From Vulcanimicrobiota bacterium (lineage in GTDB: Bacteria > Vulcanimicrobiota > Vulcanimicrobiia > Vulcanimicrobiales > Vulcanimicrobiaceae), in contig CAVTCS010000003.1 of the NCBI GenBank assembly GCA_963733295.1, positions 2,208,001 through 2,272,000 on the forward strand: a stretch of DNA of 64,000 nt. The letters are read 5' to 3'. Below the pieces are notes generated by a model, which was not told where the DNA came from, searched no databases, and saw only the letters and a program-made list of their open reading frames with translations. A program made the position numbers and the translations under genes. Positions 45,095 to 64,000 of the stretch are shown piece after piece. Numbering within the stretch: the first letter of the stretch is position 1; every line of letters begins with the position of its first letter.

Positions 45095-45162
45095 AGCACT
45101 CTTGCCTTCCACTTCTACGCTGAGGGTCCCGCGCATCGCGTCACGAAGCTTGCAGCGATGCA

Positions 45163-48827: not shown

Positions 48828-48830
48828 ACC

Positions 48831-50480
48831 TCAATCACTGGCGCTCGACCCGTAAAGGTGACGCTCACCGGACAAGAGTGCGAGCGCCCGACGTGGCGCC
48901 TCGCGTTCTTCGATGGTGAGGAGGTCCCGCCGCAAGGCGTCGTGCCGCAATGCTAAGCGCTGGAGGTCTTCGGCAAGCCGATCGAACATTGCCGCTTCGC
49001 GCCGCGCGAGCGCTGCAGCGGCCCGCTCATCTCGCATCGCGGCGACGGTTAGTCGGAGATGCGGCAGGCAGAGCGTTGTCAAGTCTACGACTTCACTGAA
49101 GCTCGTCTGGTCCAAGCGCCGAGCCAGCGCTGCGACGTGACGCGATTCCCCGTCCGCTCGCGCCGCGCAAGCCAGGCACGACAGACCGGCGGCTACGAGC
49201 GTGTCGATGGTACCGCGCAGGCTGGACGATGAACCGGTCCATCGGGCGCCAGCTACCAGCGAAGAGGCCAGCCCGCGTAGTAGTTCCGGATAGCCCACGG
49301 CGATCCCGAGCGGCGAGGCGTACGCTTCGTACTGCCAGGTGTGGCTACCACACAGGCCCCGGCGAGCCGCGTGCGCCTTACGGGCGGCGTCGCTCGCACT
49401 AAGCTCGTAAGGAAGGCGCTGGAAAAACGCCGCGAGCTCCTTAGCGACGTTTGCGCAGACGTCGCAGCGCCCAATCGGACGAATCCAGATCGAGTTATCT
49501 TTCTCGGTGCGGTCCCCCAGCTGGGGGGTCAAAGGCGACTCGTTGTCTTTTTGGAGCGCGTCTAGAAGCCGGAAACGCTCCGGACCGAGCGGCGTGCTCG
49601 CGACTAAGTTGGTAACTCGATCGGTCATCTGGCGGAGAAAGGCGTCGATTTTCCGGGCGAGGAGAAACTCGAGCAGGGCGGCCTCAAGCGCCGGAATGCC
49701 GCTCTCCTCAAGGAGCGCAGCTTTAGACCCGAGCTTCGCTTGCAGTCCATCGCGCGCAGAGACTGAAAGAATGGGCGACGTGGCCGCCGTAAGCGTCCCA
49801 AGCCGCTCGGCAACGTATGCTTGCACTTCGTTTCGTTCGCTCTTGGTGACGATGTCGTGTTTGTTGAGCGCAACGAATACTTCGGTCCGAGCAACTCGGG
49901 CCCGTTCTATAAATCGCACCTCGTCCTCGCTTAAGGGGCTGTCGTAGCTCGTTACGAGCAAAAGCGCGTCGGCCTCTGGAAAGAACGCTTCGGTCGTTCG
50001 CGAGTTCTCGACGACGGCGGAACCGAGCCCGGGCGTGTCGATCAACGCGAGTCCACGGCGCAGGAGCTCCGCCGGCAGATAGATATCGGCGCTCACGACG
50101 TTACGCTGGTTGCCTGGATTTCCGCGCTGGGTGATGTAATCGGGGAGCGCCGCGAGCGAAACCTCGCGGGGCGGTCCCCCTTTTTCGTACCGGACGACTA
50201 CGCTCTCGGTTGAGCCGTACAGGACCGTCGTTATCGCGGATGTGACGGGAACGGTACCGACCGGAAGGCGATCGGTGCCGAGAAGCGCGTTCATGAGCGA
50301 CGTCTTCCCGCGGTTGAAGTGCCCGACTAGAACTAGGTTGAACCGATCGGCAGCAAGTCGCGCGATAAGGTCCCGCGCTCGATCGCGTAGCCGCCTATCT
50401 TCATCGGGAAAGAGCAGCGCTGCAGAGCGAATGATTTCCGCGAGTCGAAATTTGCGCTGCTCGTAGGTTTGAAAGTCCAA
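48831..50480 (-). CDS. Bacterial dynamin-like GTPase with C-terminal Cys/His-rich domain
   Basis: G1 GHFNRGKT, G2 VPVTS, G3 DTPG, G4 NKHD; C-terminal CDVC..GLCGSH..CLAC..LCLPH. Confidence 0.88.
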   Translation of the reverse strand: MDFQTYEQRKFRLAEIIRSAALLFPDEDRRLRDRARDLIARLAADRFNLVLVGHFNRGKTSLMNALLGTDRLPVGTVPVTSAITTVLYGSTESVVVRYEKGGPPREVSLAALPDYITQRGNPGNQRNVVSADIYLPAELLRRGLALIDTPGLGSAVVENSRTTEAFFPEADALLLVTSYDSPLSEDEVRFIERARVARTEVFVALNKHDIVTKSERNEVQAYVAERLGTLTAATSPILSVSARDGLQAKLGSKAALLEESGIPALEAALLEFLLARKIDAFLRQMTDRVTNLVASTPLGPERFRLLDALQKDNESPLTPQLGDRTEKDNSIWIRPIGRCDVCANVAKELAAFFQRLPYELSASDAARKAHAARRGLCGSHTWQYEAYASPLGIAVGYPELLRGLASSLVAGARWTGSSSSLRGTIDTLVAAGLSCLACAARADGESRHVAALARRLDQTSFSEVVDLTTLCLPHLRLTVAAMRDERAAAALARREAAMFDRLAEDLQRLALRHDALRRDLLTIEEREAPRRALALLSGERHLYGSSASD

Positions 50481-50497
50481 AGCGATCGGCTTCGCCG

Positions 50498-52003
50498 CTA
50501 CGACGTCGCAGGTTCTACGAAAACTTCTCTGTAGAGATCCGGTCCGTAACTCGTCTCGAGCGGCGCTCCTTGCGCAATCTTGAAGGTACGACGTCCGTCG
50601 TCCAGGCGCTCGGCACGTAAGAAAAGCGCGGATGGTAGGTCTCGCGTCTGTAAGCCATGCGCAAACGCATATTGATGGGTCACGAAAAACACCTTGACAT
50701 CGTTCTCGATCAACGCGTCGACGATCTGACGGGCGATCTCGGAGCCTTCGCGCTCATTTGTTGCAGCGAACGATTCATTGAATAAGATCAGGGAGTTTGC
50801 CCTTAGGCCGTCGACAATGTCGCTCAGTCGGCGAAGCTCCTCATCGAACTTGCCGCTGTTCATTGTGGCGTCTTCTTCGCGCTTGTAGTGAGTGACGACT
50901 CTCTCGCAAACATCTGCACAAAGAGCCTCAGCCGGCGCAAACATCCCGCACTGCATCATCAGTTGTGCGAGACCGACGCTTCGCAGAAACGTCGACTTGC
51001 CACCCTGATTGGCACCGGTAATGATGATGAGAGTCTTGCCGTCAGCAGCGAGATCGTTGCTGACGACGGGACCGTTTGCGCTCAAAGTTAGGCTGACGTC
51101 GTAGAGGCCGGTCGCCGAATAACGCCGTGCCCCGACCGGACAGGGGGAAGGCAAACAGATCGACTCTCCCAGCTCGCTCAGCCTGTCATGCAAATTCAGG
51201 CACCCGACGTAGAACGCGAGCTCGGTTCGCAGCATCTCGAAAAAGCTCGTCAGATGCTCGGCCGACTGCGCAACCGCATTCGCCACGAGGTTGATACCGC
51301 GGTCGTTGAGCTGGGACAATGCACGCGCACCGCTTTCGTCACGGGGGTGAAGTTCGTACGAAAAAGCCGGCGCCTTCGGTGCGAAGAGGCGCGTCAACCA
51401 ATCGCCGTGCGCCGAACTTTGCTTGCGAAGAACATAATCCGTTCCCTTATTGCCTTCGCCTAAGCGCGCACTGAGCAAGATGCCGCGGTCGAATTTCAGT
51501 TCGTTGAGATGGCGCTCGATCGTTGCGAAGTATTCGTCGTCAAGTTCTTCAGCAAGGGAAGCAAAGAGCCGGCAGAAGCCCTCAGATCGGAAGGAGCTCG
51601 CATGCCGATCGACGATCGTCCGCAGCCTCCTCAGCATTGCGACAAGCATCTCCAAGAGGTTGACCGCCCGGTAGAGGATCGAGCGCGGGTGCCGGCCGCC
51701 GTCAAAATAGTGGTTTCGCCGCTTGGATTCCAAGGTCTCGACGGCGAGGTCATAGATCTCCCGGACGACCGCCGGATCGTTCATGCAGTCCTTCAGGATC
51801 TCCTGACGATAGCAGATCGTTTCGATGTCGGTAACGCTCCCGAGAACGGCCCTCTTTACGACTTCAGCCAGCGGCTTGTTGCCACTCGACATTGCGCCGA
51901 AGAGCGCTTCGAGTCCCAAGTCCGCGACGAGCGCATCCGCTTGCTGCGGCAGGTTGGCCCCGAAATCGAAATCCCGGTCCTTGTACATCAAATACGCGTT
52001 CAT
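50498..52003 (-). CDS. Small MutS-related ATPase (domain V, no mismatch-binding domain), copy B
   Basis: ITGANQGGKSTFLRS, HYKREED, GKFDEEL, LFNESFAATNEREG, FVTH. Confidence 0.9.
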   Translation of the reverse strand: MNAYLMYKDRDFDFGANLPQQADALVADLGLEALFGAMSSGNKPLAEVVKRAVLGSVTDIETICYRQEILKDCMNDPAVVREIYDLAVETLESKRRNHYFDGGRHPRSILYRAVNLLEMLVAMLRRLRTIVDRHASSFRSEGFCRLFASLAEELDDEYFATIERHLNELKFDRGILLSARLGEGNKGTDYVLRKQSSAHGDWLTRLFAPKAPAFSYELHPRDESGARALSQLNDRGINLVANAVAQSAEHLTSFFEMLRTELAFYVGCLNLHDRLSELGESICLPSPCPVGARRYSATGLYDVSLTLSANGPVVSNDLAADGKTLIIITGANQGGKSTFLRSVGLAQLMMQCGMFAPAEALCADVCERVVTHYKREEDATMNSGKFDEELRRLSDIVDGLRANSLILFNESFAATNEREGSEIARQIVDALIENDVKVFFVTHQYAFAHGLQTRDLPSALFLRAERLDDGRRTFKIAQGAPLETSYGPDLYREVFVEPATS

Positions 52004-53583
52004 GACTGGGTCCCGGAGGGAAGGCGCGCCTTGAGCTGTTCGTAGGTCAGACCGTACTTCTCCGCGATAGAAAGCGCATAGGCGCGCCCGTCCGCCGGGC
52101 GACGCAGCACCTTGTAGGTTCGCTTCGTCGGATCGGTCGGGTTGACGACGCTCACCATGCTCACCGTCTTCTCATTCAACGACGCGAGCTCGTCGAGGAA
52201 CGTTACGCAGACGCAAATCGCGTCGAGCTCTACGATCTTGTCGAGCACCCGGCGGGCTAGGAACACCGCGTCTTCGAGCGAGGTCGAACTGAAGACTTCG
52301 TTCATGATGATGATGCTGCGCGGAGTCGCGCAATCGAGGATGTCGCGAAACCGGATTAAGTCGTCTTGAAGCTTTCCCCGTAAGGTCTCGACGCGCTCTT
52401 GCTTTTCAAAATGGGTGAAAATGGAGTCGAAAAGAAATAGACGAGCGGAACTTCCGGGAACCGGACAACCGATGCTGGCGAAATGATGCACTTGTCCGAA
52501 GGCACGAGCGAAGGTCGTTTTTCCGCCTTGATTCGGGCCCGATACGACGAGGACACGCTCGGGGCCGTCGAGACGAAAATCGTTGCAGACGATCGGCGCT
52601 GACTCATTAAAGAGCTTCGTCGCCAAAGCGAGATCGAACGCCGCTCGGTCGTACACGTCCTTGTCCCGGGCCGATACTGTCGGGTAACAAAACGCGAGGC
52701 CGGCTTTCTTGAATCGCTCTGCGTAACCAAGGTATGCCATGTAAAACTGAATCTCGCGATCGAAGCGCCCGACGAGCGCGTCCGCGAACTCGCGGTTCGC
52801 GGTACAAAATTCGTCTAATCGTCGGAAAGGCTCCGGATTGAACCGAGCGACGAACCCGAGGATGATTTCTTCGACGTGATTCATGTCGACGGATTCCGTG
52901 AACGCGCACAAGTAGTTCTTTGCGGCGCTGCGCCGAAATTTGGCGAACGTAGCTGCGATTTCGTCGCTGTAGTTAGGCTCGGAGTCGTAATTTCGAACCT
53001 CGAATCGGCTGCCCTTGATGTGGATCGAGTACGCAAGCGCTTGCAAGTCGCGTGAAAGCGCGCCCACCTGCGCAGCGAGCCCGGTAAAGCGCTCCGATGC
53101 TAGGTACTCGCTTAAATAGCCGTGGAACGACCGTAGGCCGCGTGAGGTGAGGTTAAGCCCCCGCAAGCCCTCTTCGAGCGCGCGCACGGCGCTGAGATAC
53201 GTCGCTATGGCGCGCAGACACCAGGCCTCTTTGTTATACGTGTAGTGCAGTTTCTCGGCTTGAGCGAGCTGTTGCCGCATCAGGCGCATGCCGTCCGCGA
53301 ACGATACGATGCACGCGAAGGCGGCCTCTTCCTCGAGATCGCGCATGACCTCTTGCCGGTAGAGAATAGCGTCGAGGTCCCTGAGGGAATCGTAGAAGAA
53401 CGGCCTTAGATCGTACTCATCCTTCCCGTGCGTTATCGCGTCGAGGATTTGATCGAGGTTGAGGTCGTGAAAGTACTCAGGGGTGTGCCCGCGCACTGAT
53501 CGTTCCCTCTCGCCGCCCCGTTCGTAAAGGATGCTCTCGAACGTCTGCGCACGAGCGCCGTCCGGAAGAGTCTCAGTCGCCAT
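52000..53583 (-). CDS. Small MutS-related ATPase (domain V, no mismatch-binding domain), copy A
   Basis: DLNLDQI, VSGPNQGGKTTFAR, THFEKQE, GKLQDDL, IMNEVFSST, VTFLDEL; ATGA overlap with copy B. Confidence 0.9.
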   Translation of the reverse strand: MATETLPDGARAQTFESILYERGGERERSVRGHTPEYFHDLNLDQILDAITHGKDEYDLRPFFYDSLRDLDAILYRQEVMRDLEEEAAFACIVSFADGMRLMRQQLAQAEKLHYTYNKEAWCLRAIATYLSAVRALEEGLRGLNLTSRGLRSFHGYLSEYLASERFTGLAAQVGALSRDLQALAYSIHIKGSRFEVRNYDSEPNYSDEIAATFAKFRRSAAKNYLCAFTESVDMNHVEEIILGFVARFNPEPFRRLDEFCTANREFADALVGRFDREIQFYMAYLGYAERFKKAGLAFCYPTVSARDKDVYDRAAFDLALATKLFNESAPIVCNDFRLDGPERVLVVSGPNQGGKTTFARAFGQVHHFASIGCPVPGSSARLFLFDSIFTHFEKQERVETLRGKLQDDLIRFRDILDCATPRSIIIMNEVFSSTSLEDAVFLARRVLDKIVELDAICVCVTFLDELASLNEKTVSMVSVVNPTDPTKRTYKVLRRPADGRAYALSIAEKYGLTYEQLKARLPSGTQS

Positions 53584-55291
53584 GCGAAGCGCTCAGTACG
53601 TTGGGCGACGAACACGTTCCCGAAGTTTGCATGCTCGCTGCGTGCGCGAACTGCCGCAACCGATCCGCGGCCTGCTCGAGTTCGCTCGAGCGCCGGGCGA
53701 TTGCTTCAGCTTCGTCTGCGCCTTCCACCGCCTGCTGGAGCGCACGCCCCGCGTCGGCTCGCGCGCGCTCCAGAGAGGCCCCGACTTGCTGCGCGAGGGT
53801 CGCGTATCCATCTCGAATCGCTTGATTCGCGCGGTAGCGGATCCGGCCCGCGCGCCGATCGAGCTGCGCCTCGAGCTCGCTCCGCAGGCGGCGCGCCAGA
53901 AGTGTCGCCCGGACCGGCTGCGGAAGCAAGCCGTCGACGGCCCGCGCGACGAGCTCGGCTCCGGTCGTGGCTTGCTCGTCGGCGTATTCGAAGCGAAGTG
54001 CCGGGAGCTCAAAGGCCAATTCGGGCGGCGCGAGCGCGCCGAGCCCTAGGCCGGCAAGACCTTCAGCAATCGTGCTGCGTTCGAGGTCGACGGTGCGCGC
54101 GACGACGCGCTCCATGTTTCGCTGCATTCGCGCCTGGAGTTCGCGACGGACCTCTTCGACCCACGCGGTCGCAGCGGAGCCAACACCGTCGGCAATGCCC
54201 TGGCGATACGCTAACAGGTCGCCGTGCTCTACAGCGGACCGCAGCCGCTGCTCCAGGGATACGAGCGCTTCACGCTTGCGGTCCTCGAGCCGCTGCTCGA
54301 TAAGGCGCAGATCCTCGCGTGCCGCTCGATCGAGCGTGTCGACGATTTCGCCTGCGCGTCGCGGGAGTTCACTCTCGAAGGTTGCAAAGCGCTCTGCGAG
54401 CGCCGCTCGACGCTCGAGCGGCAAACGCAGCGCTTCGCGCTCGATCAGGAGAGAACGGAGCAACCACGCGGCGTCGCGTGTAGCTTTTCGGCGCAGCGAT
54501 CGCTCAAAGACTTCACGACCGTGCGCTTCGACGAAATCTCGAAACGTTGCCACGAAGTCGCCGAGTCCCTGGCCTCTTGTCGCACTCAGCGGGAAAATGC
54601 GAACGTCGCCATCCTCGCGCGCTCCGGCCAGGGTTTTGCGCGTGAACTCTATCAGTGGTTCTCGCTCCTTGTCATTGACGATTTGATCGACTTTGTTCAG
54701 CACGATGAAGAGGCGCTCCGAGGCATCGAGCACCTTACGCGCAAAGGCGAGTTCGGCCTCACCGATGGGTGGCTCGGCGCCGACCACGAGAATAGCGAGA
54801 TCGGCCCGCGTTAGCGTTTCTAGCGCAGCCCCGGTGTTGTGTGCGTACGTCGAGGCGATGCCGGGGGAGTCGATCATTGCGACCCCAGCGAGGATGGGAG
54901 CGGGCACGGTAACGGCGGCGCTCCGAACCAGCAGGCGATTTTCCGGATTGCCCTGTTCGGTGACGTAGCGCTTTAGTTCGGGGGGCGAGATCTCGAGCGG
55001 CGGCCGCGCTTCATCGAGAAACTCGATCGTTACGCGCAATGGACCGAAGCGGACGACGGTCGGGATCGCCGTAACCGGCAACATGCCGGTTGGCAGCAGG
55101 TCCGTCCCCAAAAGCGCGTTGATGAAGGTGCTCTTGCCGCGTTTGAACTGACCAGCCACGACCACGGTCAGCTCGCGCCTGCACTCCTCGTCTCGCAGCC
55201 GCTCGATCGCCGAAATCGCCGACGGGGAGCCGAACCGGCGAGCCAGTCCCAGCAGTTCTTCCGAGTCGGAATTGCCGTTACGGCCGTTCAC
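53573..55291 (-). CDS. Bacterial dynamin-like GTPase with helical stalk
   Basis: G1 GQFKRGKS, G2 LPVTA, G3 DSPG, G4 NKVD; probable GTG start 55291 (ORF open to 55396). Confidence 0.88.
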   Translation of the reverse strand: MNGRNGNSDSEELLGLARRFGSPSAISAIERLRDEECRRELTVVVAGQFKRGKSTFINALLGTDLLPTGMLPVTAIPTVVRFGPLRVTIEFLDEARPPLEISPPELKRYVTEQGNPENRLLVRSAAVTVPAPILAGVAMIDSPGIASTYAHNTGAALETLTRADLAILVVGAEPPIGEAELAFARKVLDASERLFIVLNKVDQIVNDKEREPLIEFTRKTLAGAREDGDVRIFPLSATRGQGLGDFVATFRDFVEAHGREVFERSLRRKATRDAAWLLRSLLIEREALRLPLERRAALAERFATFESELPRRAGEIVDTLDRAAREDLRLIEQRLEDRKREALVSLEQRLRSAVEHGDLLAYRQGIADGVGSAATAWVEEVRRELQARMQRNMERVVARTVDLERSTIAEGLAGLGLGALAPPELAFELPALRFEYADEQATTGAELVARAVDGLLPQPVRATLLARRLRSELEAQLDRRAGRIRYRANQAIRDGYATLAQQVGASLERARADAGRALQQAVEGADEAEAIARRSSELEQAADRLRQFAHAASMQTSGTCSSPNVLSASHGD

Positions 55292-55371
55292 GCCGTGGCT
55301 CGCAAAACTTCCGCGCGGGCGCTCGACGCGCGATGGCGGCTTCGGGAGGGTCGACGATAGTCGTTGTACAC
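55288..55371 (-). CDS. Putative leader peptide (MYNDYRRPSRSRHRASSARAEVLRATA)
   Basis: GGAG SD 9 nt upstream of GTG; TGA overlaps the dynamin GTG (GTGA). Confidence 0.4.
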   Translation of the reverse strand: MYNDYRRPSRSRHRASSARAEVLRATA

Positions 55372-55397
55372 TGCCACGGACTCCAGGTTGCTGCACT

Positions 55398-55443
55398 AGG
55401 AGTCATCAGCCGTTTCCGGCGGTCGTGGCGAACTCCATCGCCC
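55398..55443 (-). ncRNA. Fluoride riboswitch (crcB motif) no. 1, upstream of the dynamin/MutS operon
   Basis: GGGCGATGGAGTTCGCCACGACCGCCGGAAACGGCTGATGACTCCT: P1 GGCGA/TCGCC, pseudoknot GGAGT/ACTCC, P2 GCCG-GAAA-CGGC, conserved GATGG and CTGATG. Confidence 0.92.
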
Positions 55444-55685
55444 ACAGGATGGTTCTGCGGTGACTCCCGAAATCATCTCATATGAGCTGCCCGGTCCGGA
55501 GGGCGCGACGTCGCGAGGGCTGACGAAGCAGAGAAGGGACACGGGACGGCGTTCGCACGCGACACGAAAGGGTTACGCGCGAAATGTCGCGCTATCCGAC
55601 ATCGCGACTTCTGGCGATCTTGTTGCTCCAGCGCTGCAACTTTTCGTCGTAGGAAGCCAACCGCTCCCTGCAGTATAGGTATCTC

Positions 55686-55731
55686 GGGCGATGGAGTTCG
55701 CCACAACCGCCGGAAACGGCTGATGACTCCT
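55686..55731 (+). ncRNA. Fluoride riboswitch no. 2
   Basis: GGGCGATGGAGTTCGCCACAACCGCCGGAAACGGCTGATGACTCCT; followed by CTCCTC/GAGGAG SD-sequestering hairpin; TATAGG -10-like box just upstream. Confidence 0.93.
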
Positions 55732-55752
55732 CGGAGGGTGAGGAGCATTCTT

Positions 55753-55908
55753 GTGGCTGAGAACAGCAAGCCCGAAGCGCCGCGGCGCCTCTTCAACCGT
55801 CTCGCACGTTGTGTGCGCAGACGTTGCGCCGTTTGCGAAAACCCCGCACGCGCTCGCGTCGCCGAAATCGAGCAGACTCCGTCTCGGCGCCCACCGTTCT
55901 CCCGCTGA
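55753..55908 (+). CDS. Small basic ORF with CxxC, first gene after riboswitch 2
   Basis: GAGGAG SD 7 nt before GTG; MAENSKPEAPRRLFNRLARCVRRRCAVCENP... Confidence 0.5.
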   Translation: MAENSKPEAPRRLFNRLARCVRRRCAVCENPARARVAEIEQTPSRRPPFSR

Positions 55909-55927
55909 ACTCTCGCGGCATTAAGGC

Positions 55928-56329
55928 ATGGGTACTCTGAGAAGATGGTGGCGCTTCGTCACCAGCGGCGTGATCGCGGAGATGCCCAGTCATGGGACGC
56001 CGGACGAGCTCGAGGCGCTGCGCACGACCAATCGCGACCTCCAGGAGCGCGTAGCTTGGCTGGATGGGCGCCTTAAGGAGGTCGTCGAGCGGTTGTATTC
56101 CATCGAACAGCAATATTCGGTCGAACACTTCCAACTCACCGAATCGCAACGCGACCTTCGAGATGAGCGAATGCGCCTGGCCGCAGCGCGCGCCGAGCGA
56201 ACGATCATTCTCTCCCGCGCTGGAGACCTGCAAGCACGAATCCGCGACTTGAAGGGGCGTCTTGCATCGCACGAGACCGTGGAAGCCTCGTTCTTCGACG
56301 ATGCACCCATCGTAGACGATTCAAAGTGA
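55928..56329 (+). CDS. Hypothetical coiled-coil protein
   Basis: TAAGG before ATG; amphipathic N-terminus, long Leu/Glu/Arg heptad region. Confidence 0.7.
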   Translation: MGTLRRWWRFVTSGVIAEMPSHGTPDELEALRTTNRDLQERVAWLDGRLKEVVERLYSIEQQYSVEHFQLTESQRDLRDERMRLAAARAERTIILSRAGDLQARIRDLKGRLASHETVEASFFDDAPIVDDSK

Positions 56330-56338
56330 GTCGATGAG

Positions 56339-57025
56339 ATGAGCGACAAGCCTGCCGCAACCGTCGGCGCGCTCTTCGACGACCTGACGCGGTCGGAACA
56401 CAAGAGGTCAGGCGCGGCGGCCGAGGATTTGGCAGCTGCAAAGGAACGGCTCTTCGGCGGCTTCCGCGAAGCGCAGCGTGCGCTGAATAGGGGATGCGAT
56501 TCCGACATTAGGTCGTCGCCGACCCTCCTGACGCGCCCGCTCGTCGTCGCGCGCACTTGCTTAGAAAACGAGTTGCTAGGAACGAGCACGCTCGCCGATA
56601 AGGCGCTCAGAAGCCACCTCTTGTTTGCGGGTTGCCAGGACATCGTCGCGTGTTGTACCCGCAGTGTGCGTGACAATGCCGATGTGCGTTTCCGGGCGCG
56701 TTTCCGGATGTTCGCGGAGGCTGTCCACGAACTCGAGTGCGAGTTCGCCGAGAAAGCACGAGTTGTGGAACCGGAAGGCGCTTCGCGCATAAAGATGCCG
56801 CGACGCATCGCCGTCCCGAGAGTCTGCCTTGATGATCTCCCAATGCCGCGACAGCCCGACGACTCGTCCGCCGCCTCGATAAATGCATGGGCGAGCGATT
56901 TGACTATGCTGCTGACCGACCGCCTTCGCGAGGCCGTCGAGGACGCACGCCGAGAGGCTGTCCGGCGTTCAACGCGCAGCGTCGCTCGTATCGTCGTCCG
57001 CGCGGCCCGGGCTCTGCACCGCTAG
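56339..57025 (+). CDS. Hypothetical helical protein
   Basis: 228-aa ORF 9 nt downstream of previous gene, ending before riboswitch 3. Confidence 0.6.
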   Translation: MSDKPAATVGALFDDLTRSEHKRSGAAAEDLAAAKERLFGGFREAQRALNRGCDSDIRSSPTLLTRPLVVARTCLENELLGTSTLADKALRSHLLFAGCQDIVACCTRSVRDNADVRFRARFRMFAEAVHELECEFAEKARVVEPEGASRIKMPRRIAVPRVCLDDLPMPRQPDDSSAASINAWASDLTMLLTDRLREAVEDARREAVRRSTRSVARIVVRAARALHR

Positions 57026-57086
57026 CTCGCGCGGCCATGAACCGCGACGCGGGAAGAGCCGCTTGGCCAACGAAGATACGAGGGAA

Positions 57087-57130
57087 GGGCGATGGGGCTC
57101 GCCCGAACCGCCGTGAGGCTGATGGCTCCT
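57087..57130 (+). ncRNA. Fluoride riboswitch no. 3, upstream of the metallophosphoesterase
   Basis: GGGCGATGGGGCTCGCCCGAACCGCCGTGAGGCTGATGGCTCCT: P1 GGGCGA/TCGCCC, pseudoknot GGGGC/GCTCC, P2 GCC-GTGA-GGC; GCTCC/GGAGC hairpin hides the SD. Confidence 0.9.
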
Positions 57131-57153
57131 GGTCGATCGAACCGGAGCGCGCT

Positions 57154-57906
57154 ATGAAGAGCCTCATTATCGCCGACGTTCACGCAAATTGGGCGGCCCT
57201 CGAAGCGCTGCCCGCTGCGGATCTTGTCGTCTGCGCAGGCGACATGGTAACTTTTGGGCCGCAGCCCGGCGCAGTCATCGATGCTCTCGCCAAGATCGGC
57301 GCTCGCTGTGTGCGCGGGGACGAAGACGATGCGGTTGCGCGCAATTTGCGGCGTGAAGCAGCGCCGGGGCTCGAGTCCGCCGCCGACGAAACCCGGGTCT
57401 GGACGCGCTCGGTCCTCACGAAAAACCAGATGCGCTGGTTGGGCGAACTCCCGTTTGAAATCGAGGTGGAGGCCGGCAGTGTGCGGCTGGCTGCCACCCA
57501 CGCGTATCCCGGCGTCATCAACCGCTACCTCCGCCCGACGCGCGAGGAACTGGAGCGTGTCGCCCGAGCATTCCCCCGAGCGAACATCGTCGTAGTTGGC
57601 CACACGCATCGCAGTGGCATTTGGCAAGTCGGCGGAACGACGATCTTGATGCCGGGAAGCGTCGGGCAGTCAAGCCATGGCGGGCATGCATCGTTTGCTC
57701 AGATCGAAGGCAGCACCGTTACCCTTCGTGAGCTTCCGTACGACGTCGACAGAACGATCGAACAGATTCGCGCCACTCCTTGGAGCGCAAGCGCAAAGGA
57801 GAGCTGCATACGCGCCCTCCAACTTGGCGCCCCGCGGCCGTACGAATCCGTTCTGCCGAAGGATGTCGAGCGTCGCTTGGCCGTAGGTCCCGCGCGCGGT
57901 AAGTGA
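57154..57906 (+). CDS. Calcineurin-like metallophosphoesterase
   Basis: ADVHAN, AGDMV, RGDED (in place of GNHD), THA, VGHTH, PGSVGQ. Confidence 0.88.
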   Translation: MKSLIIADVHANWAALEALPAADLVVCAGDMVTFGPQPGAVIDALAKIGARCVRGDEDDAVARNLRREAAPGLESAADETRVWTRSVLTKNQMRWLGELPFEIEVEAGSVRLAATHAYPGVINRYLRPTREELERVARAFPRANIVVVGHTHRSGIWQVGGTTILMPGSVGQSSHGGHASFAQIEGSTVTLRELPYDVDRTIEQIRATPWSASAKESCIRALQLGAPRPYESVLPKDVERRLAVGPARGK

Positions 57907-57930
57907 CCGCCAATCGCAGACTCAGGAAGG

Positions 57931-58290
57931 ATGGCAACCTTGGCCCAAGTCCACGAGAGTTCAAAGGCGGATCCAGGACCCGAAGCAACGCGCGCCCGAA
58001 TTCGCTCGCTCGCGGCTTTTGTTGCTTTGGTGGCGGGTGCATTCGTGCCGGCGCCTCGTGGCCAATTCCTACCATCTTCCTGGTCTTGCTGCTGTTTCTT
58101 GAGCCGATTCGAGCGAAGACCGGGTACGTCACACTTTTGATCGGCTGCATCGTAGCCGCAATCTTACCTAGCATCGGCTGGGCGATCGCTACTCACCATC
58201 TTGCGTTTTAATGCCGTGCTTGTTGCTTCCGGGCTGATCCTTGCGAGCTTAGCGCGGCTGGCCGCGCCTCGGCAAGCTGTGTCGAAGTAG
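57931..58290 (+). pseudogene. Small multi-TM membrane protein apparently broken by two compensating frameshifts
   Basis: AGGAAGG before ATG 57931; hydrophobic segments continue in the 57903 frame from ~58050 and return to the original frame at the TTTT run 58206-58209, ending TAG 58290. Confidence 0.45.
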
Positions 58291-58361
58291 CTCAAGCGCC
58301 CATGATCCCTGCCAGGAGGGTCGCCAAAGCCCATGTCTAAGAGCAGCGAAAAATTCAAAGC

Positions 58362-58411
58362 CGCGATGGAGCTCGCGTTAAGCCCACAACAACTGGGATG
58401 ATGGCTCCTAC
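58362..58411 (+). ncRNA. Fluoride riboswitch no. 4, upstream of the Ehr operon
   Basis: CGCGATGGAGCTCGCGTTAAGCCCACAACAACTGGGATGATGGCTCCTAC: P1 CGCGA/TCGCG, pseudoknot GGAGC/GCTCC, P2 CCCA/TGGG, 3' CCTAC. Confidence 0.85.
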
Positions 58412-58448
58412 TCAGACCTTCCGAGTGCGGAGCCGGCTTTGTTTCTTT
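58403..58448 (+). terminator. Intrinsic terminator forming the expression platform of riboswitch 4
   Basis: GGCTCC-TACTC...GAGTG-C-GGAGCC stem uses the aptamer 3' strand; followed by GGC TTTGTTTCTTT. Confidence 0.7.
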
Positions 58449-58487
58449 CAGCACACCTAAATCGAAACCAATTGCGGCGGGCGAGCT

Positions 58488-59438
58488 TTGGCGCAATCGA
58501 TCGCGCTTAACGCTGCGCAGTTGGCGTTCGTTCTACTCCTCTCACCGCTCTTTAGCGGGCTCTTAACCCGATGCAAAGAGATCGTTCAGTCGAAGCGTGG
58601 GCCGAGCGTCTTTCAGCCGTATCGCGACTTGCGCAAACTCTTGGGAAAAGACGAACGAATACCGGATGAGAGCACCTGGATCTTCCGAGCAGCGCCGTAT
58701 TTCGTCTTCGTCGTTCCGTTGATCGTTACGTTGCTGATCCCGGTCCTCACCGATTTTCCGCTGTTCTTCGCATTCGCCGGCGACATGCTGGCCGTTGGTT
58801 TTATTCTCGCTATCTCGGGATTTTTCTTCACGTTGGCGGCGATCGATGGAGGCAACCCCTACGGGGCAATGGGAGCGAGCCGAACCCGTATGGTTGGGTT
58901 CTTGGCCGAGCCGGTCATCATCATCGTGCTCTTCACCGTGTCGTTCGTCGCGAATTCGACAATTCCGTACATCGTGCAGCAACATTGGATTCACCCAATC
59001 GCGAACTTCTTCGCGCCATCGCACATTCTGTTGCTGATAGCATTTTTCATGATCATTCTCGCGGAGACCGGAAAGCTTCCAGTCGACAACCCAAGCGGCC
59101 ACTTTGAGCTCGCCATGATCGACGAGTCGAAGGCCCTGGAATTCTCGGGCCGCGGGGCGGCCTTAATCAAATACGGCGGCTACATGAAGTTCACGGTTTT
59201 GGCGATCGTTTTTCTCAACGTGCTGGTAGCGCCATGGGGCCTCGCTCAACATGCCTCGCCGCTAGCCGTGCTAGTTGCGGGAGGGGCAGTCGCCTTGAAG
59301 ATCTTGGCGCTCGTAGGAGCAATCGTCATCGTCGAGTCGTCGCTTGCCAAACTCCGGCTCTTTCGTATCTCGGAATTCCTTGGCGCCGCTTTCGTCATTT
59401 CGGTCACGGCGATGGTAACGCAGCTGCTGAGCTTTTAG
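58488..59438 (+). CDS. hyfC: Hydrogenase-4/Ehr membrane subunit HyfC (NuoH-like)
   Basis: RGPSVFQPYRDLRKLLGK, GAMGASR, LAETGKLPVDNP, ELAMIDE, AKLRLFR. Confidence 0.9.
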   Translation: MAQSIALNAAQLAFVLLLSPLFSGLLTRCKEIVQSKRGPSVFQPYRDLRKLLGKDERIPDESTWIFRAAPYFVFVVPLIVTLLIPVLTDFPLFFAFAGDMLAVGFILAISGFFFTLAAIDGGNPYGAMGASRTRMVGFLAEPVIIIVLFTVSFVANSTIPYIVQQHWIHPIANFFAPSHILLLIAFFMIILAETGKLPVDNPSGHFELAMIDESKALEFSGRGAALIKYGGYMKFTVLAIVFLNVLVAPWGLAQHASPLAVLVAGGAVALKILALVGAIVIVESSLAKLRLFRISEFLGAAFVISVTAMVTQLLSF

Positions 59439-59458
59439 GGCGGCGGGGATACGGAAGC

Positions 59459-60124
59459 ATGACGCTGCTCTCGGAACTCAACGCGCTCGTTCTGGGTCTC
59501 TTCATCGTCAGTACGATCGCGATGACGGTCACCCGGCAGATCGGCGCGTGCATTCAGGTCTTCGTCGCGCAGTCGCTACTGCTGGCCGCGTCGGCCTTCT
59601 TGCTCGGCGCCGTATCGCTTTCGTGGCACCTGATTGCGCTCGGGTGCATCACGGTGGTCGGTAAGGCGATCGCGATCCCCTGGTTGCTGCGCGCACTGCT
59701 GCCGAACGAGGTCCATCGCACGCGCGAGCTTTCTCAGACGATCGACGTACCGACCGTGCTGCTCATCGCACTCGGACTCACGCTGTTAGGCTACGGATTC
59801 GCCGCCCACATCGCGCACGCCGCGCCGAATCTCTCGCCTGGTAACGTCTCGACGGGGGTTGCGGGCTTGCTCGTTGGCCTGCTGCTCTTGGCCGTCCGAA
59901 GCGAGGCGGTTCCGCAATTGCTCGGCATCTTAGCGATGGAAAACGGCGCGTTCCTCGCCGGCATCGCGATTGCATCGGACTTTCCGCTCATCGCGGAATT
60001 CGCAATCGCCTTCGACGTCCCGTTGCTGACGTTCATCGTCGCACTCTTAGCGCGTGCTGCGTACCGGCAGATCGGCACGACGGAGGTCGGTGGGCTTTCG
60101 ACGTTGCGCGAGCGCGTCCGATGA
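59459..60124 (+). CDS. hyfE: Hydrogenase-4/Ehr membrane subunit HyfE
   Basis: QSLLL, KAIAIPWLL, QLLGILAMENG, PLIAEFAIAFDV. Confidence 0.88.
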   Translation: MTLLSELNALVLGLFIVSTIAMTVTRQIGACIQVFVAQSLLLAASAFLLGAVSLSWHLIALGCITVVGKAIAIPWLLRALLPNEVHRTRELSQTIDVPTVLLIALGLTLLGYGFAAHIAHAAPNLSPGNVSTGVAGLLVGLLLLAVRSEAVPQLLGILAMENGAFLAGIAIASDFPLIAEFAIAFDVPLLTFIVALLARAAYRQIGTTEVGGLSTLRERVR

Positions 60125-61554
60125 TCTTCGCGATTCCCGGCGCTGCGCTGTTGGCAGCTTTATGGTGTGCGCTCCCCCGCAGCGGCCGGGCAGCGCCGCC
60201 GGTGACATTCGCCGGAGCGATAGCTGCGGTCTGCATCTCGCTGCGCGTGCTGTGGACGCTGCGCGCCGGCGGCACGGCCACAATCGTTCCCGGGTGGCTC
60301 GAAATCGATCCGCTGGCGGCCTTGCTCCTCGTACTGATCGCATTCGTTTACGCGACCGCGGCGCTCTTTTCGTGGGGTTACCTGGCCGATGAAACCGGGG
60401 GGCGTGGCCGCCTTTACTACGCCAATTTCAACCTGTTCACTTTCTCGATGCTCAGTATCCCACTCCTGACCGAGATGGGACTCGTTTGGATCTTCGTCGA
60501 GCTCACGACGCTCCTCTCGATCTTGCTGGTCAACTTTGCCGGTACTACCGAGTCGCTCGAAGCGGCTTGGAAGTACATGGTGCTCACGCTGCTCGGCGCG
60601 ACGGTCGCGGTCTTGGGCGTACTCGTGCTCTTTTGGGCGTTGCACGCTGCAGGTAGCACGGAGTTCAACTGGAACGGCTTGCGTGCTGCGGCGCCGCGCA
60701 TGCCGCACGCTTTGCTGGGTTTTGCCTTCGTGCTGATACTGGTCGGGTATGGCGCGAAGATCGGACTCGTCCCCCTGCACACCTGGCTTCCGGATGCGCA
60801 CAGTCAAGCGCCCTCACCGGTTTGCGCGATGTTGTCCGGTATCGAGACGAGCGTCGTTCTCTACGTGATTCTGCGGCTGCGCAACGTCTTTGCCGCGGAC
60901 CCGTCGCTCCACGTCGGAGCGTGGTTTGTGGCGGTCGGGCTCGTGTCGGCCGGCGCTGCCGCCCTGCTCGTCGTGCAGACGCACGATTACAAGCGTCTTT
61001 TTGCCTTTTCGACTGTGGAGCACATGGGGATCATTCTGACCTCCGCCGGAATCTTCACGCCGGCCGGCGACATCGCCGCGGTCTGGCAGTTGCTCGCTCA
61101 TAGCGTTACGAAATCATTTTGCTTCTACGCTGCTGGAGCGACGCTGATCGCGACCGGCACCCGTGACATCGTCGCGATTCGCGGCTTACTAGGGTCGAAC
61201 CGGATCGCTGCCGGGGCGCTCTTGGTCGGCGCTCTCGCAATCGGCGGGGCACCGCCGTTCGCCGTCTTTCTCAGCGAACTTGCCATCCTGCGCGCCGGTC
61301 TGTCGGCGCACGCATACGTGCTAGTCGCGCTCCTAGCGCTCTTCATCGTCGTTGCGTTTTTCGGATTGCTCTGGCACGTGATGCGGATGCTTGCGGGGCC
61401 GCCGAGCGAGAACCCGCAAGGCAAGCGCGTTCCCGCGACCTGCATCTGGGCATTGTGCCTGGCGGGGCTCCCGGTCGTGGTCTTTGGCATTTGGCTCCCC
61501 GAGGCATTGGGACGGGCGATTGAGAACGCGGCGCGCGCGCTAGGGACCTCGTAG
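60121..61554 (+). CDS. hyfF: Hydrogenase-4/Ehr antiporter-like subunit HyfF
   Basis: WIFVELTT, SLEAAWKY, GYGAKIGLVPLHTWLPDAHSQAP, YKRLFAFSTVEHMG. Confidence 0.9.
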   Translation: MIFAIPGAALLAALWCALPRSGRAAPPVTFAGAIAAVCISLRVLWTLRAGGTATIVPGWLEIDPLAALLLVLIAFVYATAALFSWGYLADETGGRGRLYYANFNLFTFSMLSIPLLTEMGLVWIFVELTTLLSILLVNFAGTTESLEAAWKYMVLTLLGATVAVLGVLVLFWALHAAGSTEFNWNGLRAAAPRMPHALLGFAFVLILVGYGAKIGLVPLHTWLPDAHSQAPSPVCAMLSGIETSVVLYVILRLRNVFAADPSLHVGAWFVAVGLVSAGAAALLVVQTHDYKRLFAFSTVEHMGIILTSAGIFTPAGDIAAVWQLLAHSVTKSFCFYAAGATLIATGTRDIVAIRGLLGSNRIAAGALLVGALAIGGAPPFAVFLSELAILRAGLSAHAYVLVALLALFIVVAFFGLLWHVMRMLAGPPSENPQGKRVPATCIWALCLAGLPVVVFGIWLPEALGRAIENAARALGTS

Positions 61555-61556
61555 GC

Positions 61557-63116
61557 GTGCTGACCGAAACACTCGAGACGCTACGCTCGGTCTGGCCTGC
61601 AGCCTCGTGGAAAGCGGAGGGTGACTCGGTCGCCGCGGCGATTCCGGTCGAGCATTTGTGCGAGCTGGCGGGGCGTCTTCGCGCGCGGGAATGGCGACTC
61701 GGTACGATCGTAGCGACCGACCGCGGAGCGGCGCTTGAACTGCGCTACTGCTTCTATGCAACTCGCCATCCCGGGTGGGCCCAGCTCGTCGTCGCCGTCG
61801 ATCCGCTAGAACGAACCCTGCCGAGCATCACGTCCACGGTCATCGCCGCCGATTGGTTCGAACGCGAAATCGAAGACCTGTTCTCGATCCGCTTTACGGA
61901 GCACCCACGCTTGGGTGATTTCGTTCTGCACAACGATCAATGGGCCGAAGACATGGGGCTCATGCGCCCGGGCGTTGAGTCGACCAGCGATGTACGGGAG
62001 GAACGGCGCGAATGGCGGCCGATGCGCGTGCTCGAGGAAGAGGGCGCCTTCGTGATGCCGATCGGACCGGTCTATTCCGGAGAGGCTGAGTCCGCGCTCT
62101 TCCTGTTGGAAACGGTGGGCGAAGATGTCGTACGCGCCATTCCTCGGCTGTTTTTCAAATACCGCGCCATCGAGAAACTGGCCGAAGGGCGGAGCGTGCG
62201 GGACGTTCTGCTGCTCGCCGAGCGCTGCGCCGGAACGAGCGCGATCGGGAACGGCCTTGCGTATTGTCACGCCGTCGAGCGCGCGCTGGGGCTTGAGGTG
62301 CCTCCACGCGCTGTCGCCTTGCGCGCGTTTTTCGCTGAGCTCGAGCGCGTGCGTCACCATATGACCTCCGTGCGAGAGGTGTGTACCTCGACGTCGCTGA
62401 CCGTCGCGGCGAGTCAGGCATTGTGGCTCGAGGAACAGCTGCTGCGACTCTGCGGCGAGTTGTGCGCACACCGCTATCTGTTCGGCGTGCTCGATGTCGG
62501 CGGTCTCATGCACGATTACGAGGCGGCGGCGCTCGAGCGTGCCGTGGCCGCGGTAGAAGCGATCTGTGTCCAGATCGACGCGCTGCGCGATGCCCTGGAG
62601 AATACGAGCAGCTTTCTGGATCGCATCGAGCAAGTCGGCGTCGTGAGCGAACCCGCCGCGCGGGCATTCGAGCTCGTGGGTCCGTTCGCGCGCGCAAGCG
62701 GAGTCTCGGCGGATATGCGAGCGATCCAACCTTACGGACCCTACGCGTCGATACCGTTCGACGTACCAACGGAGGTCGAGGGCGACGGGTATGCGCGCCT
62801 GCGCGTGCTGTTTGCGGAGATCAGGCAGTCGCTGCCGATCGCACGGGCGCTCGCGAGTGACTTGCCCGCGGGTTCGATTCGAACAGAAGCCGTAATGCGC
62901 GCCGGCAATGGTCTGGGCTGGACCGAAGCTCCGCGCGGCGCATCGGTGCAGTGGGCTGATGTGACCGCGGAGGGGAGCGTGCGCCGTTATCGCCTTACCC
63001 CGCCGTCGTTCCGCAACTGGCACGGTTTCCACGTCGCAACCGAAGAATTCGCCTTCCAGGACTTTCCGATCGTGCTCGCCACCCTCGACCTATCCGTTGC
63101 GGAGAACGATCGATGA
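61557..63116 (+). CDS. Ehr large subunit (HyfG/HycE-like NuoC+NuoD fusion) lacking Ni-binding cysteines
   Basis: WFEREIEDLF, HP, IGPV, ELERVRHH, EAPRG, PSFRNW, DFPIV; ERCAGTS and TLDLSVAENDR replace RxCGxC and DPCxxC. Confidence 0.9.
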   Translation: MLTETLETLRSVWPAASWKAEGDSVAAAIPVEHLCELAGRLRAREWRLGTIVATDRGAALELRYCFYATRHPGWAQLVVAVDPLERTLPSITSTVIAADWFEREIEDLFSIRFTEHPRLGDFVLHNDQWAEDMGLMRPGVESTSDVREERREWRPMRVLEEEGAFVMPIGPVYSGEAESALFLLETVGEDVVRAIPRLFFKYRAIEKLAEGRSVRDVLLLAERCAGTSAIGNGLAYCHAVERALGLEVPPRAVALRAFFAELERVRHHMTSVREVCTSTSLTVAASQALWLEEQLLRLCGELCAHRYLFGVLDVGGLMHDYEAAALERAVAAVEAICVQIDALRDALENTSSFLDRIEQVGVVSEPAARAFELVGPFARASGVSADMRAIQPYGPYASIPFDVPTEVEGDGYARLRVLFAEIRQSLPIARALASDLPAGSIRTEAVMRAGNGLGWTEAPRGASVQWADVTAEGSVRRYRLTPPSFRNWHGFHVATEEFAFQDFPIVLATLDLSVAENDR

Positions 63117-63850
63117 ACTGGTTCTTGCGCGGCTTGCGCGCCGGCGTGCGGACCGAGCGGGAGCCCGTGGGCCGCGACGCGGCGCTTTCCCTATCGCCTG
63201 GCCTTCCGCGTGCGACGCTGCATCCATCGACCCAAGCAGCCACCGACATTGCAAAGGTTTGCCCGACCGGCGCAATCGTTGCGGAAGAATCGGTCGCTCG
63301 CGTTCTCCAAGACCGCTGCGTTGAATGTATGCGATGCAAGGCGGCGGGGTCGAGCGCGCAAGGCTGGGACCAAAACGTCCGCGTCGCACACGCTCCCGAA
63401 GAGCGGGGATTCGATCCGCTCGATGGCAGCTTCAAGAGATCGCTCCACGTGCGCATCGTCGACGCCGGCGACTGCGGGTCGTGTTTGAACGAACTGGCGC
63501 AACTCAACGGTCCATCGTACAACCTCCACCGGTTCGGGATCTTTATTACGCCGACTCCGCGTCAGGCAGACGTGTTGCTCGTCGTCGGACCGGTGACGCG
63601 ACAGATGCGCGGCCCTCTCCGGGCCGCCTACGATGCAATGCCGGACCCGAAGCGCGTCGTTGCGGTCGGCGCGTGCGCCGCGAGCGGCGGAATCTTTGGT
63701 CCCTCCGTCATGTGTGCCGCAGGGGTGGCCGACGCGGTCCCGGTCGACCTCGTGGTCCCAGGATGCCCCCCGCCGCCGTTCGCGATCGTCCACGCGCTGC
63801 GCGCCGTGTGTGGGCAGCAACCACTCAATCTCGCGAGCGATCTGGCATGA
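63113..63850 (+). CDS. Ehr small subunit (HyfI/NuoB-like) with N-terminal ferredoxin remnant
   Basis: CPTGAI...CVECMRC; DAGDCGSCLNE, PRQADVLLVVGPVT, VGAC, PGCPP. Confidence 0.9.
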   Translation: MNWFLRGLRAGVRTEREPVGRDAALSLSPGLPRATLHPSTQAATDIAKVCPTGAIVAEESVARVLQDRCVECMRCKAAGSSAQGWDQNVRVAHAPEERGFDPLDGSFKRSLHVRIVDAGDCGSCLNELAQLNGPSYNLHRFGIFITPTPRQADVLLVVGPVTRQMRGPLRAAYDAMPDPKRVVAVGACAASGGIFGPSVMCAAGVADAVPVDLVVPGCPPPPFAIVHALRAVCGQQPLNLASDLA

Positions 63851-64000
63851 ACCAGTGGGAACTCGCCGTGACCCTCGCAGCCGTGGCACTTCCCATCGTC
63901 GGCGCGCTCGTGTGCCTCGTTTTGCCGGAACGAGCCGCCGTGCGCATTCTCACGGCAACCTGTTCCTGTGCTGCCGCTCTATCGCTTACGGCCGGCATCG
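63847..64000 (+). CDS. Membrane protein, probably HyfB-like antiporter subunit (3' truncated by window edge)
   Basis: ATGA overlap; hydrophobic MNQWELAVTLAAVALPIVGALVCLVLP...; HyfB is the subunit not yet seen in the operon. Confidence 0.5.
   Translation, partial: MNQWELAVTLAAVALPIVGALVCLVLPERAAVRILTATCSCAAALSLTAGI

Follow-up and report, generated by a model that had tools for sequence, protein, structure and literature searches.

Four fluoride aptamers, each with its own gene cassette, in a probable horizontally acquired island of a Vulcanimicrobiota bacterium

The window analysed here is a stretch of 64,000 nt from a Vulcanimicrobiota bacterium (Vulcanimicrobiaceae; GCA_963733295.1, contig CAVTCS010000003.1, positions 2,208,001-2,272,000, forward strand), in which four fluoride riboswitch aptamers lie within 3 kb. 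Aptamer 1 heads a minus-strand operon of the order dynamin-like, MutS4-like, MutS4-like and dynamin-like gene, and on the plus strand aptamer 2 precedes orf133 and orf228, aptamer 3 a metallophosphoesterase (MPE) gene and aptamer 4 the operon of a hydrogenase-related membrane complex. We favour, at a probability of about 75%, the view that this region is the regulatory core of a horizontally acquired 17.4-kb fluoride-response island composed of four independent cassettes with one riboswitch each, and judging from the sequence each switch most likely turns on its own set of stress genes. Coordinates are window positions throughout, and the genome to which the window belongs (3.44 Mb, 17 contigs, 97% complete) is designated G000.

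A cmscan search of the window against Rfam 15 at the gathering thresholds returned exactly four matches, all to the fluoride riboswitch family (RF01734, gathering score 34 bits), which was the only family matched at this level, with scores of 39.7-49.6 bits and E-values (for the 64-kb window) of 1e-10 to 2e-7. Aptamer 1 (55390-55451, 45.6 bits) is located on the minus strand, and aptamers 2 (55687-55731, 49.6 bits), 3 (57079-57138, 48.0 bits) and 4 (58353-58417, 39.7 bits) on the plus strand. A laxer search of 46000-64000 added no fifth aptamer, and none beyond these four was found elsewhere in the 3.44 Mb of G000. The core nucleotides GAUGG, in the P1 loop, and UGAUG, before the 3' strand of the pseudoknot, are present in all four. 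In aptamer 4, P2 is closed by a G.A pair and an A replaces a C (GGGAUGAUG); the same exchange is common to the orthologous leaders of loci L074, L081, L083 and L085 and is a lineage variant.

In the cmscan alignments the pseudoknot strands read GGAGU/ACUCC in aptamers 1 and 2, GGGGC/GCUCC in aptamer 3 (with one G-U pair) and GGAGC/GCUCC in aptamer 4, and the P1 strands GGCG/CGCC in aptamers 1-3 and CGCG/CGCG in aptamer 4. The core of aptamer 2 is an inverted copy of that of aptamer 1 (55398-55443 and 55686-55731, 46 nt, 98% identical, 242 nt apart), the identity stopping at the aptamer borders, so that covariation within the window comes from three independent sequences and not four. Pairs were also counted for P1, P2 and the pseudoknot in an alignment of 24 aptamers from the G000 island and four related islands. 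Altogether 94.2% of the cells were paired: P1 was paired completely (100%, the outer pair being GC in 20 sequences and CG in four), the pseudoknot to 97.5% (last pair CG in 15 and UA in eight) and P2 to 84.2%, the P2 of the complex-type aptamers having been misaligned by MAFFT. Six pairs vary on both sides, the covariation score was reached in none of 500 shuffles, and pairing fell to 34-59% when the partners were slid by 1-3 columns. The preliminary description of this DNA, which had noted four fluoride aptamers in 3 kb, a covarying pseudoknot and P1, and the retention of GATGG and TGATG, is thus borne out on each of these points, and by aptamer sequence and structure all four can be regarded as genuine fluoride riboswitches. 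Contigs from two soil metagenomes match only the 45-nt aptamer core (55687-55731) and then diverge, one of them into a terminator with GGAG and a U-run; to judge from their sequence, they represent another organism's fluoride riboswitch with a near-identical core.

Downstream of every aptamer, an alternative hairpin can be folded that uses the 3' strand of the pseudoknot (-11.4 to -18.0 kcal/mol). After aptamer 3 (57125-57148, plus strand, -11.4 kcal/mol, no U-tract), GCUCC pairs with GGAGC (57144-57148) and covers the Shine-Dalgarno (SD) sequence GGAG at 57144-57147, 6 nt before the AUG of the MPE gene at 57154, a predicted fold that amounts to a clean translational design. The platform of aptamer 4 (58403-58449, plus strand) consists of an 11-bp hairpin (58403-58434, -18.0 kcal/mol) followed by GGCUUUGUUUCUUUC, and folding supports its classification as intrinsic-terminator-like. 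This hairpin is kept, with base changes, in G035, L070-L073, L075 and L077-L080, mostly with a U-rich tail, and in L081, L083 and L085 it sits near the start codon instead, so that the type of platform varies even among orthologues.

The function of the platforms of aptamers 1 and 2 is ambiguous in the models, with hiding of an SD sequence being plausible for both. In the platform of aptamer 1 (55379-55404, minus strand), GACUCC (55404-55399) pairs with GGAGUC (55384-55379) in the minimum free energy and the centroid folds (-11.6 kcal/mol, no U-tract), and the hidden GGAGUC serves no start codon in the frame of the dynamin-like gene. It fits instead the start of a candidate leader open reading frame (ORF) of 27 codons (55288-55371, minus strand) that runs from GUG 55371, with the SD GGAG 8 nt upstream, to the UGA at 55290-55288, which overlaps GUG 55291 as GUGA; the latter codon is in frame with the dynamin-like gene, and the overlap suggests translational coupling of the leader ORF to this gene. 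The hairpin following aptamer 2 (55727-55745, plus strand, CUCCUC/GAGGAG, -13.2 kcal/mol) covers an SD-like GAGGAG (55740-55745) that lies 5 nt before a TTG at 55751, and together with its tail CAUUCUUGUG it was also listed as terminator-like by the terminator scan. The TTG opens an ORF of 57 codons (55751-55924, plus strand) which ends 3 nt before the ATG of orf133, lacks a coding signature because its GC contents by codon position are 0.63/0.65/0.68, has no Pfam or NCBIfam family and no homologue in the related islands, and is probably a leader rather than a protein gene. The earlier proposal that the 3' pseudoknot strand pairs with the SD in aptamers 1-3 consequently holds for aptamer 3 and only in part for the other two, since aptamer 1 has no in-frame start and aptamer 2 precedes a non-coding-like ORF and a terminator-like structure. 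The U-tailed terminator proposed for aptamer 4 was recovered, so that the folds support the suggested use of two regulatory mechanisms at aptamers 3 and 4 and make it plausible at the other two.

On these folds, each aptamer would act as an ON switch in which fluoride with Mg2+ locks the pseudoknot, whereby its 3' strand (ACUCC or GCUCC) could no longer enter the competing hairpin. Without this lock, the hairpin would hide the SD of the MPE gene at aptamer 3, would act as an intrinsic terminator before the membrane complex at aptamer 4, and at aptamers 1 and 2 would hide an SD-like GGAG, which most likely belongs to a short leader ORF with translational coupling to the first genuine gene of the cassette; the hairpin of aptamer 2 may act as a weak terminator instead.

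The island extends over approximately 17.4 kb, from 48831 to about 66193, and comprises the four aptamer-headed cassettes. The sequences on either side of it (44541-48830 and from 66194 on) have collinear counterparts 1.8 kb apart on contig C2 of G001, a genome of the same genus, the homology on the left ending at 48830; compared with G001, therefore, 48831-66193 was either inserted in G000 or lost by G001. The ends, which were checked for repeats only, showed no flanking direct or inverted repeats of at least 9 nt. Contigs of four other studies tile the region at 99% identity or more, with bridging contigs across the orf228-aptamer 3-MPE and spacer-aptamer 4-hyfC junctions, and the layout is therefore not an artefact of one assembly. 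Islands with several aptamers were also found in four genomes of the same family, namely G014 (five matches), G025 (six), G033 (seven) and G035 (four), the last having its island and the corresponding flanks on different contigs. Their gene contents overlap in orf133, the MPE gene, the complex, the pair of MutS4-like genes and the dynamin-like genes, and some additionally carry CrcB, DUF190, MFS, cyclopropane-fatty-acid synthase, Nudix and phosphoesterase genes. The family tallies (multi-aptamer islands and CrcB counts) take in the unpublished genomes G009, G020, G022 and G029, and no conclusion hangs on unpublished genomes alone. The G025 island (C1:3450001-3490000) is interrupted by transposition genes of the Mutator-family, IS-type integrase and DDE transposase kinds, which number at least ten and include several identical copies, and its GC content at third codon positions (GC3) is below that of its flanks, which gives it the appearance of recent mobility.

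The operon behind aptamer 4 (58488-65982, plus strand, running past the window end at 64000) comprises six genes that were assigned with Pfam and NCBIfam: HyfC/NuoH-like (58488-59438), HyfE-like (59459-60124), HyfF-like (60121-61554), a NuoC+NuoD-like large subunit (61557-63116), a NuoB-like small subunit with a ferredoxin-like N-terminus (63113-63850) and HyfB-like (from 63847), all on the plus strand. A Hyf/Hyc-type subunit set is thus present, with all subunits below the NCBIfam equivalog cut-offs. The best PDB match of the large subunit was E. coli HycE (7z0s_E, 8.9e-49), in comparison with which all four NiFe-ligand cysteines are replaced (CGIC to AGTS and DPCYSC to DLSVAE), and these cysteines are absent from all 30 large subunits compared, that is, the present one and 29 homologues. 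Judging by its sequence, the small subunit retains the cysteines that a NuoB-type cluster would need. HypD (PF01924), the only Hyp maturation gene searched for, was not found in the 97% complete G000. Because of the replaced cysteines, the missing HypD and the lack of any NCBIfam equivalog at cut-off, the complex is not a hydrogenase, and an identity as [NiFe]-hydrogenase or formate hydrogenlyase was ruled out by the replacement of all four cysteines. Its sequences instead mark it as a nickel-free, hydrogenase-related membrane complex of the Ehr type. It is like E. coli formate hydrogenlyase and hydrogenase-4 (Hyc/Hyf, PDB 7z0s) in its six-subunit layout of HyfB/C/E/F-like, NuoCD-like and NuoB-like proteins, and unlike them in having no NiFe ligands and in belonging to a clade that sits behind fluoride aptamers.

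This association was evident from a survey of 25 loci encoding relatives of the large subunit (48-73% identical), in which aptamers were located with a covariance model built from the 24-sequence alignment. The loci come from metagenome-assembled genomes (MAGs) labelled Eremiobacteraeota, Acidiferrales/Acidoferrum, Acetobacteraceae and other Proteobacteria, Spirochaetia, Phycisphaerales, Desulfobacterales and Binataceae; the unpublished G077 (L088) is included here as well as in the comparison of the NiFe cysteines and in the tally of complex against CrcB. Altogether 52 aptamers were found, at least two of them in 15 of the 25 loci. All 22 loci with upstream sequence have an aptamer on the plus strand at 87-379 nt before hyfC, the other three (L076, L082 and L088) starting at or inside the operon and being excluded from this count. 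In L070, L071, L072, L074, L075, L078, L086 and G035 a divergent aptamer is found just upstream of the complex cassette, and in such layouts the complex must have its own promoter. The remaining cassettes recur in a comparable manner: G014 has the MPE gene behind an aptamer of its own within a divergent layout, G033 has a dynamin-like gene behind its own aptamer, and orf133 follows an aptamer in L072, L073, L080, L085 and G033. Such recurrence in other contexts is in keeping with mobile cassettes, every one of them equipped with a switch of its own. In two MAGs the aptamers are more numerous, with six matches in L084 (Spirochaetia) and five in L090 (Acetobacteraceae) within 18 kb, regulons that are denser than that of the window per island and not per 3 kb.

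The preliminary description had proposed that the three plus-strand switches work in series. According to this model aptamers 2, 3 and 4 are carried on one transcript, and the complex would require three successive fluoride decisions, giving it a steeper response or a higher threshold. Several observations accord with it, and they count against independent cassettes: no consensus sigma-70 promoter was found in 54800-59000 (0.6 were expected), for which reason promoters proper to aptamers 3 and 4 are hypothetical in G000; aptamer 3 begins just 54 nt after the stop codon of orf228, and neither orf228 nor the MPE gene is followed by a predicted terminator, which makes read-through possible. A same-strand arrangement of aptamer, genes, aptamer and complex is moreover present in 6/22 related loci with upstream sequence (L073, L080, L081, L083, L084 and L085), and terminator action at aptamer 2, or Rho polarity arising from untranslated leaders, could reduce transcription further downstream. 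The picture drawn from the platforms has weak points of its own, in that it is uncertain which start codons the SDs hidden at aptamers 1 and 2 would serve, the leader ORFs following these aptamers show neither coding signature nor homologues, the terminator scan gave five sites against 4.5 expected in shuffled sequence, and the hairpin of aptamer 4, whose loop exceeds the limit of the scan, was missed by it. A serial arrangement is nevertheless unlikely in our judgement. The complex keeps its own aptamer whatever precedes it, including in the divergent layouts, the homology between the G000 and G035 leaders, which are orthologous, begins exactly at aptamer 4, and L085 has a good -35/-10 pair (TTGCCG-N17-TATACT) in the 75 nt between orf133 and the aptamer of the complex. 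Aptamer 3, with SD sequestration and no U-tract, would not gate transcription, and aptamer 4 is preceded by a 445-nt spacer (57907-58352) that contains no convincing gene. We therefore could not sustain the proposal of layered or threshold control, and the accompanying idea that the membrane complex is gated most tightly does not follow, because a translational switch leaves downstream transcription ungated. When the 75 nt upstream of 22 island aptamers were inspected by eye, scattered -10-like hexamers and no shared motif at a fixed distance were seen. A look for RNA sequencing runs that match 55300-59300 returned none.

It is very improbable that the cluster instead reflects decay or redundancy, at least one aptamer having no regulatory role and aptamers 1 and 2, for instance, being a recent inverted duplication. 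Such a history would suit the near-identity of these two up to the aptamer borders, and the low score and non-standard P2 closing pair of aptamer 4. All four, however, exceed the gathering score with the invariant positions kept, each is followed by a hairpin using its own pseudoknot strand and precedes a gene class found behind fluoride aptamers elsewhere, and the aptamer 4 variant is common to orthologous leaders in four other genomes. Under the preferred reading of independent cassettes, the clustering and same-strand order of the aptamers would be a by-product of cassettes gathering in one island and not a designed cascade.

The known fluoride exporters were searched for in G000. CrcB (PF02537) and CLC (PF00654) gave no match; tblastn of the genome with the CrcB, CLC and riboswitch-linked antiporter proteins of relatives gave nothing beyond a match to a CBS domain; and a CrcB hidden Markov model (HMM) built from 13 relatives gave a best E of 7.7 against the six-frame translation, all ten control loci being matched. 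The CrcB of G009 was among the seeds of the tblastn and HMM searches. A candidate CrcB remnant at C3:322570-322719 (tblastn E 0.8) was rejected, as it lies in an OsmC-like ORF (identified from its translation, with no family search). G001 carries an aptamer with a CPA antiporter (1.3 kb) and a 7.6-kb segment with CrcB where G000 has joins of 46 and 94 nt, both of which are inside a 2.97-Mb contig and so are not assembly gaps. Five other Na_H_Exchanger genes are present in G000, none of them with an aptamer. CrcB is present in 30 of the 36 other genomes of the family, and among 29 loci of relatives with a single aptamer, 18 have it in front of a CPA antiporter orthologous to that of G001, at 60-82% identity. 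That the complex replaces an exporter was rejected as a general rule, given that 14 of 23 complex-bearing genomes also have CrcB, often at the same locus; G025 and G033 likewise hold both. In the sister family (f3, G042-G060), CrcB and CLC were each without a match in all 19 genomes, 12 of which have a fluoride aptamer match at E <= 0.001 (six of these 12 above the Rfam cut-off), and the aptamer precedes a CPA-type antiporter of 395-407 aa at all 11 loci (L021-L028 and L032-L034). The aptamers of this family are a variant in which GGUGG replaces GAUGG and CCGAUG replaces CUGAUG; an additional hairpin separates P1 from P2, and the scores are near or below the cut-off. According to part of a 2024 review (PMC11139923), more than 85% of surveyed strains have a fluoride exporter, and species without one tend to be reduced intracellular symbionts.

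The minus-strand operon of aptamer 1 comprises dynA (53573-55291), a MutS4A-like gene (52000-53583), a MutS4B-like gene (50498-52003) and dynB (48831-50480), the last gene of the operon and the left edge of the island. Both dynamin-like proteins have the dynamin-type GTPase domain (Pfam Dynamin_N, 3.4e-23 for dynA and 1.7e-25 for dynB) and are far below the cut-off of the NCBIfam DynA equivalog. The start of dynA is uncertain; its N-terminus is unconserved before about residue 45, and GUG 55291 is preferred over the automatically assigned GUG 55396, which is inside the aptamer tail. MutS_V is the sole Pfam match of the MutS4A-like protein (1.5e-19) and the only MutS domain of the MutS4B-like protein (3.3e-20), which is 51-61% identical to proteins encoded in the G014, G033 and G035 islands. 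Two promoters are presumed in the divergent intergenic region between aptamers 1 and 2 (55452-55686), which has a TATAGG 6 nt before aptamer 2, no consensus sigma-70 site and no homologue in related islands.

On the plus strand, orf133 (55928-56329) encodes a coiled-coil-like island protein, for which Pfam and NCBIfam gave no usable family and the Atlas only generic coiled-coil clusters; homologues (41-53% identical) are located beside aptamers, MutS4 genes or the complex in G014, G033, G035, L072, L073, L080, L083 and L085. The weakly conserved orf228 (56339-57025, plus strand) has coding-type GC3, weak matches only in G033 and L083 and no usable family in Pfam, NCBIfam or the Atlas. The YfcE-like MPE (57154-57906, plus strand; Pfam Metallophos_2, 4.3e-19) remains below the cut-off of the NCBIfam YfcE subfamily, and its homologue in G014 (47% identical) is likewise located behind an aptamer. 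In the 445-nt spacer, an automatically called ORF of 102 aa (57903-58211) is doubtful, with GC contents of 0.54/0.57/0.64 by codon position and no family, and tblastx and blastn against all related islands revealed no remnant genes in this spacer, in the aptamer 2 leader or in the divergent intergenic region. The role of the complex may, at a guess, be ion or pH homeostasis, and that of the dynamin-like and MutS4-like nucleoside triphosphatases membrane or nucleic-acid maintenance.

Outside the island, genes for an AddB-like PD-(D/E)XK nuclease and a UvrD-like helicase (45163-48827, plus strand), which are common to G001, abut the left end and are convergent with dynB. A sub-threshold Rfam match to the L31-Actinobacteria leader inside the nuclease gene (46363-46407, plus strand, 25.9 bits against 35, E 0.26) is probably due to chance. 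To the right follow a GNAT acetyltransferase (66092-67198), the true start of which is probably downstream of 66092 because homology to G001 resumes inside the ORF at 66194, and a DinB/ImpB-type translesion polymerase (68376-69779).

The aptamers share with the known fluoride riboswitch (crcB motif; Weinberg et al. 2010; Baker et al. 2012) the sequence and the fold of P1, P2 and pseudoknot, the location in 5' leaders, the ON logic of overlapping terminators and the association with genes of mutS and formate hydrogenlyase type. They are themselves no different from it, the arrangement being peculiar in that four lie within 3 kb and none precedes a fluoride exporter. Both mutS and formate hydrogen lyase genes, as well as terminators that overlap the motif, already figure in the 2010 account of crcB by Weinberg et al. 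(PMC2864571), and exporters, antiporters, phosphatases/phosphoesterases and formate hydrogen lyase are given for the fluoride regulon in a section of the 2024 review (PMC11139923), so that, by sequence assignment, the gene classes behind the present aptamers match the published regulon. At the level of titles and abstracts, we found no literature tying a fluoride riboswitch to a hydrogenase-type complex, dynamin or MutS. In their 2022 review (PMC9481103), Sherlock et al. count fluoride as one of the classes for which no tandems were found. As in tandem riboswitches, several aptamers of one class are placed on one strand here and could in principle sharpen the response; unlike tandems, successive aptamers are separated by 1.2-1.35 kb of genes and spacer, with orf133 and orf228 between aptamers 2 and 3 and the MPE gene and the 445-nt spacer between aptamers 3 and 4, and each has its own platform and genes. 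MutS4A and MutS4B are described, in part of the 2007 report by Lin, Nei and Ma (PMC2190696), as adjacent genes overlapping at stop and start, with the MutS ATPase domain only, near the C-terminus, and this part gives no function for the pair. The present pair, assigned by these traits and not by a tree, is alike in its MutS_V-only domain content and 4-nt overlap, and differs in having a dynamin-like GTPase gene on either side, all four genes forming one operon that follows a fluoride aptamer.

Because the riboswitch class, its ON logic and the link to mutS and formate hydrogenlyase genes were published in 2010-2012, the four aptamers extend the membership of the class without adding a principle. 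What has been called formate hydrogenlyase in the fluoride regulon is a distinct complex, nickel-free and of the Ehr type. It lies directly behind a fluoride aptamer at all 22 loci with upstream sequence, which represent six or more named bacterial groups, and its constant riboswitch control offers an inducer and a phenotype to seek for a complex family without known function. A bolder view, in which the island is the whole fluoride defence of a free-living soil bacterium without a known exporter and the complex relieves fluoride stress by ion translocation, appears to us quite improbable. If it were true, the complex would pump protons or sodium against acidification driven by hydrogen fluoride, or would expel fluoride itself, and would take the place of the cassettes with CrcB and the CPA antiporter that G001 carries where G000 has clean gaps. 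A genome that has the island and none of the known exporters is useful as a natural setting in which fluoride defence may depend on the accessory genes, and the island, being compact (17.4 kb) and bounded, could be moved whole or in parts.

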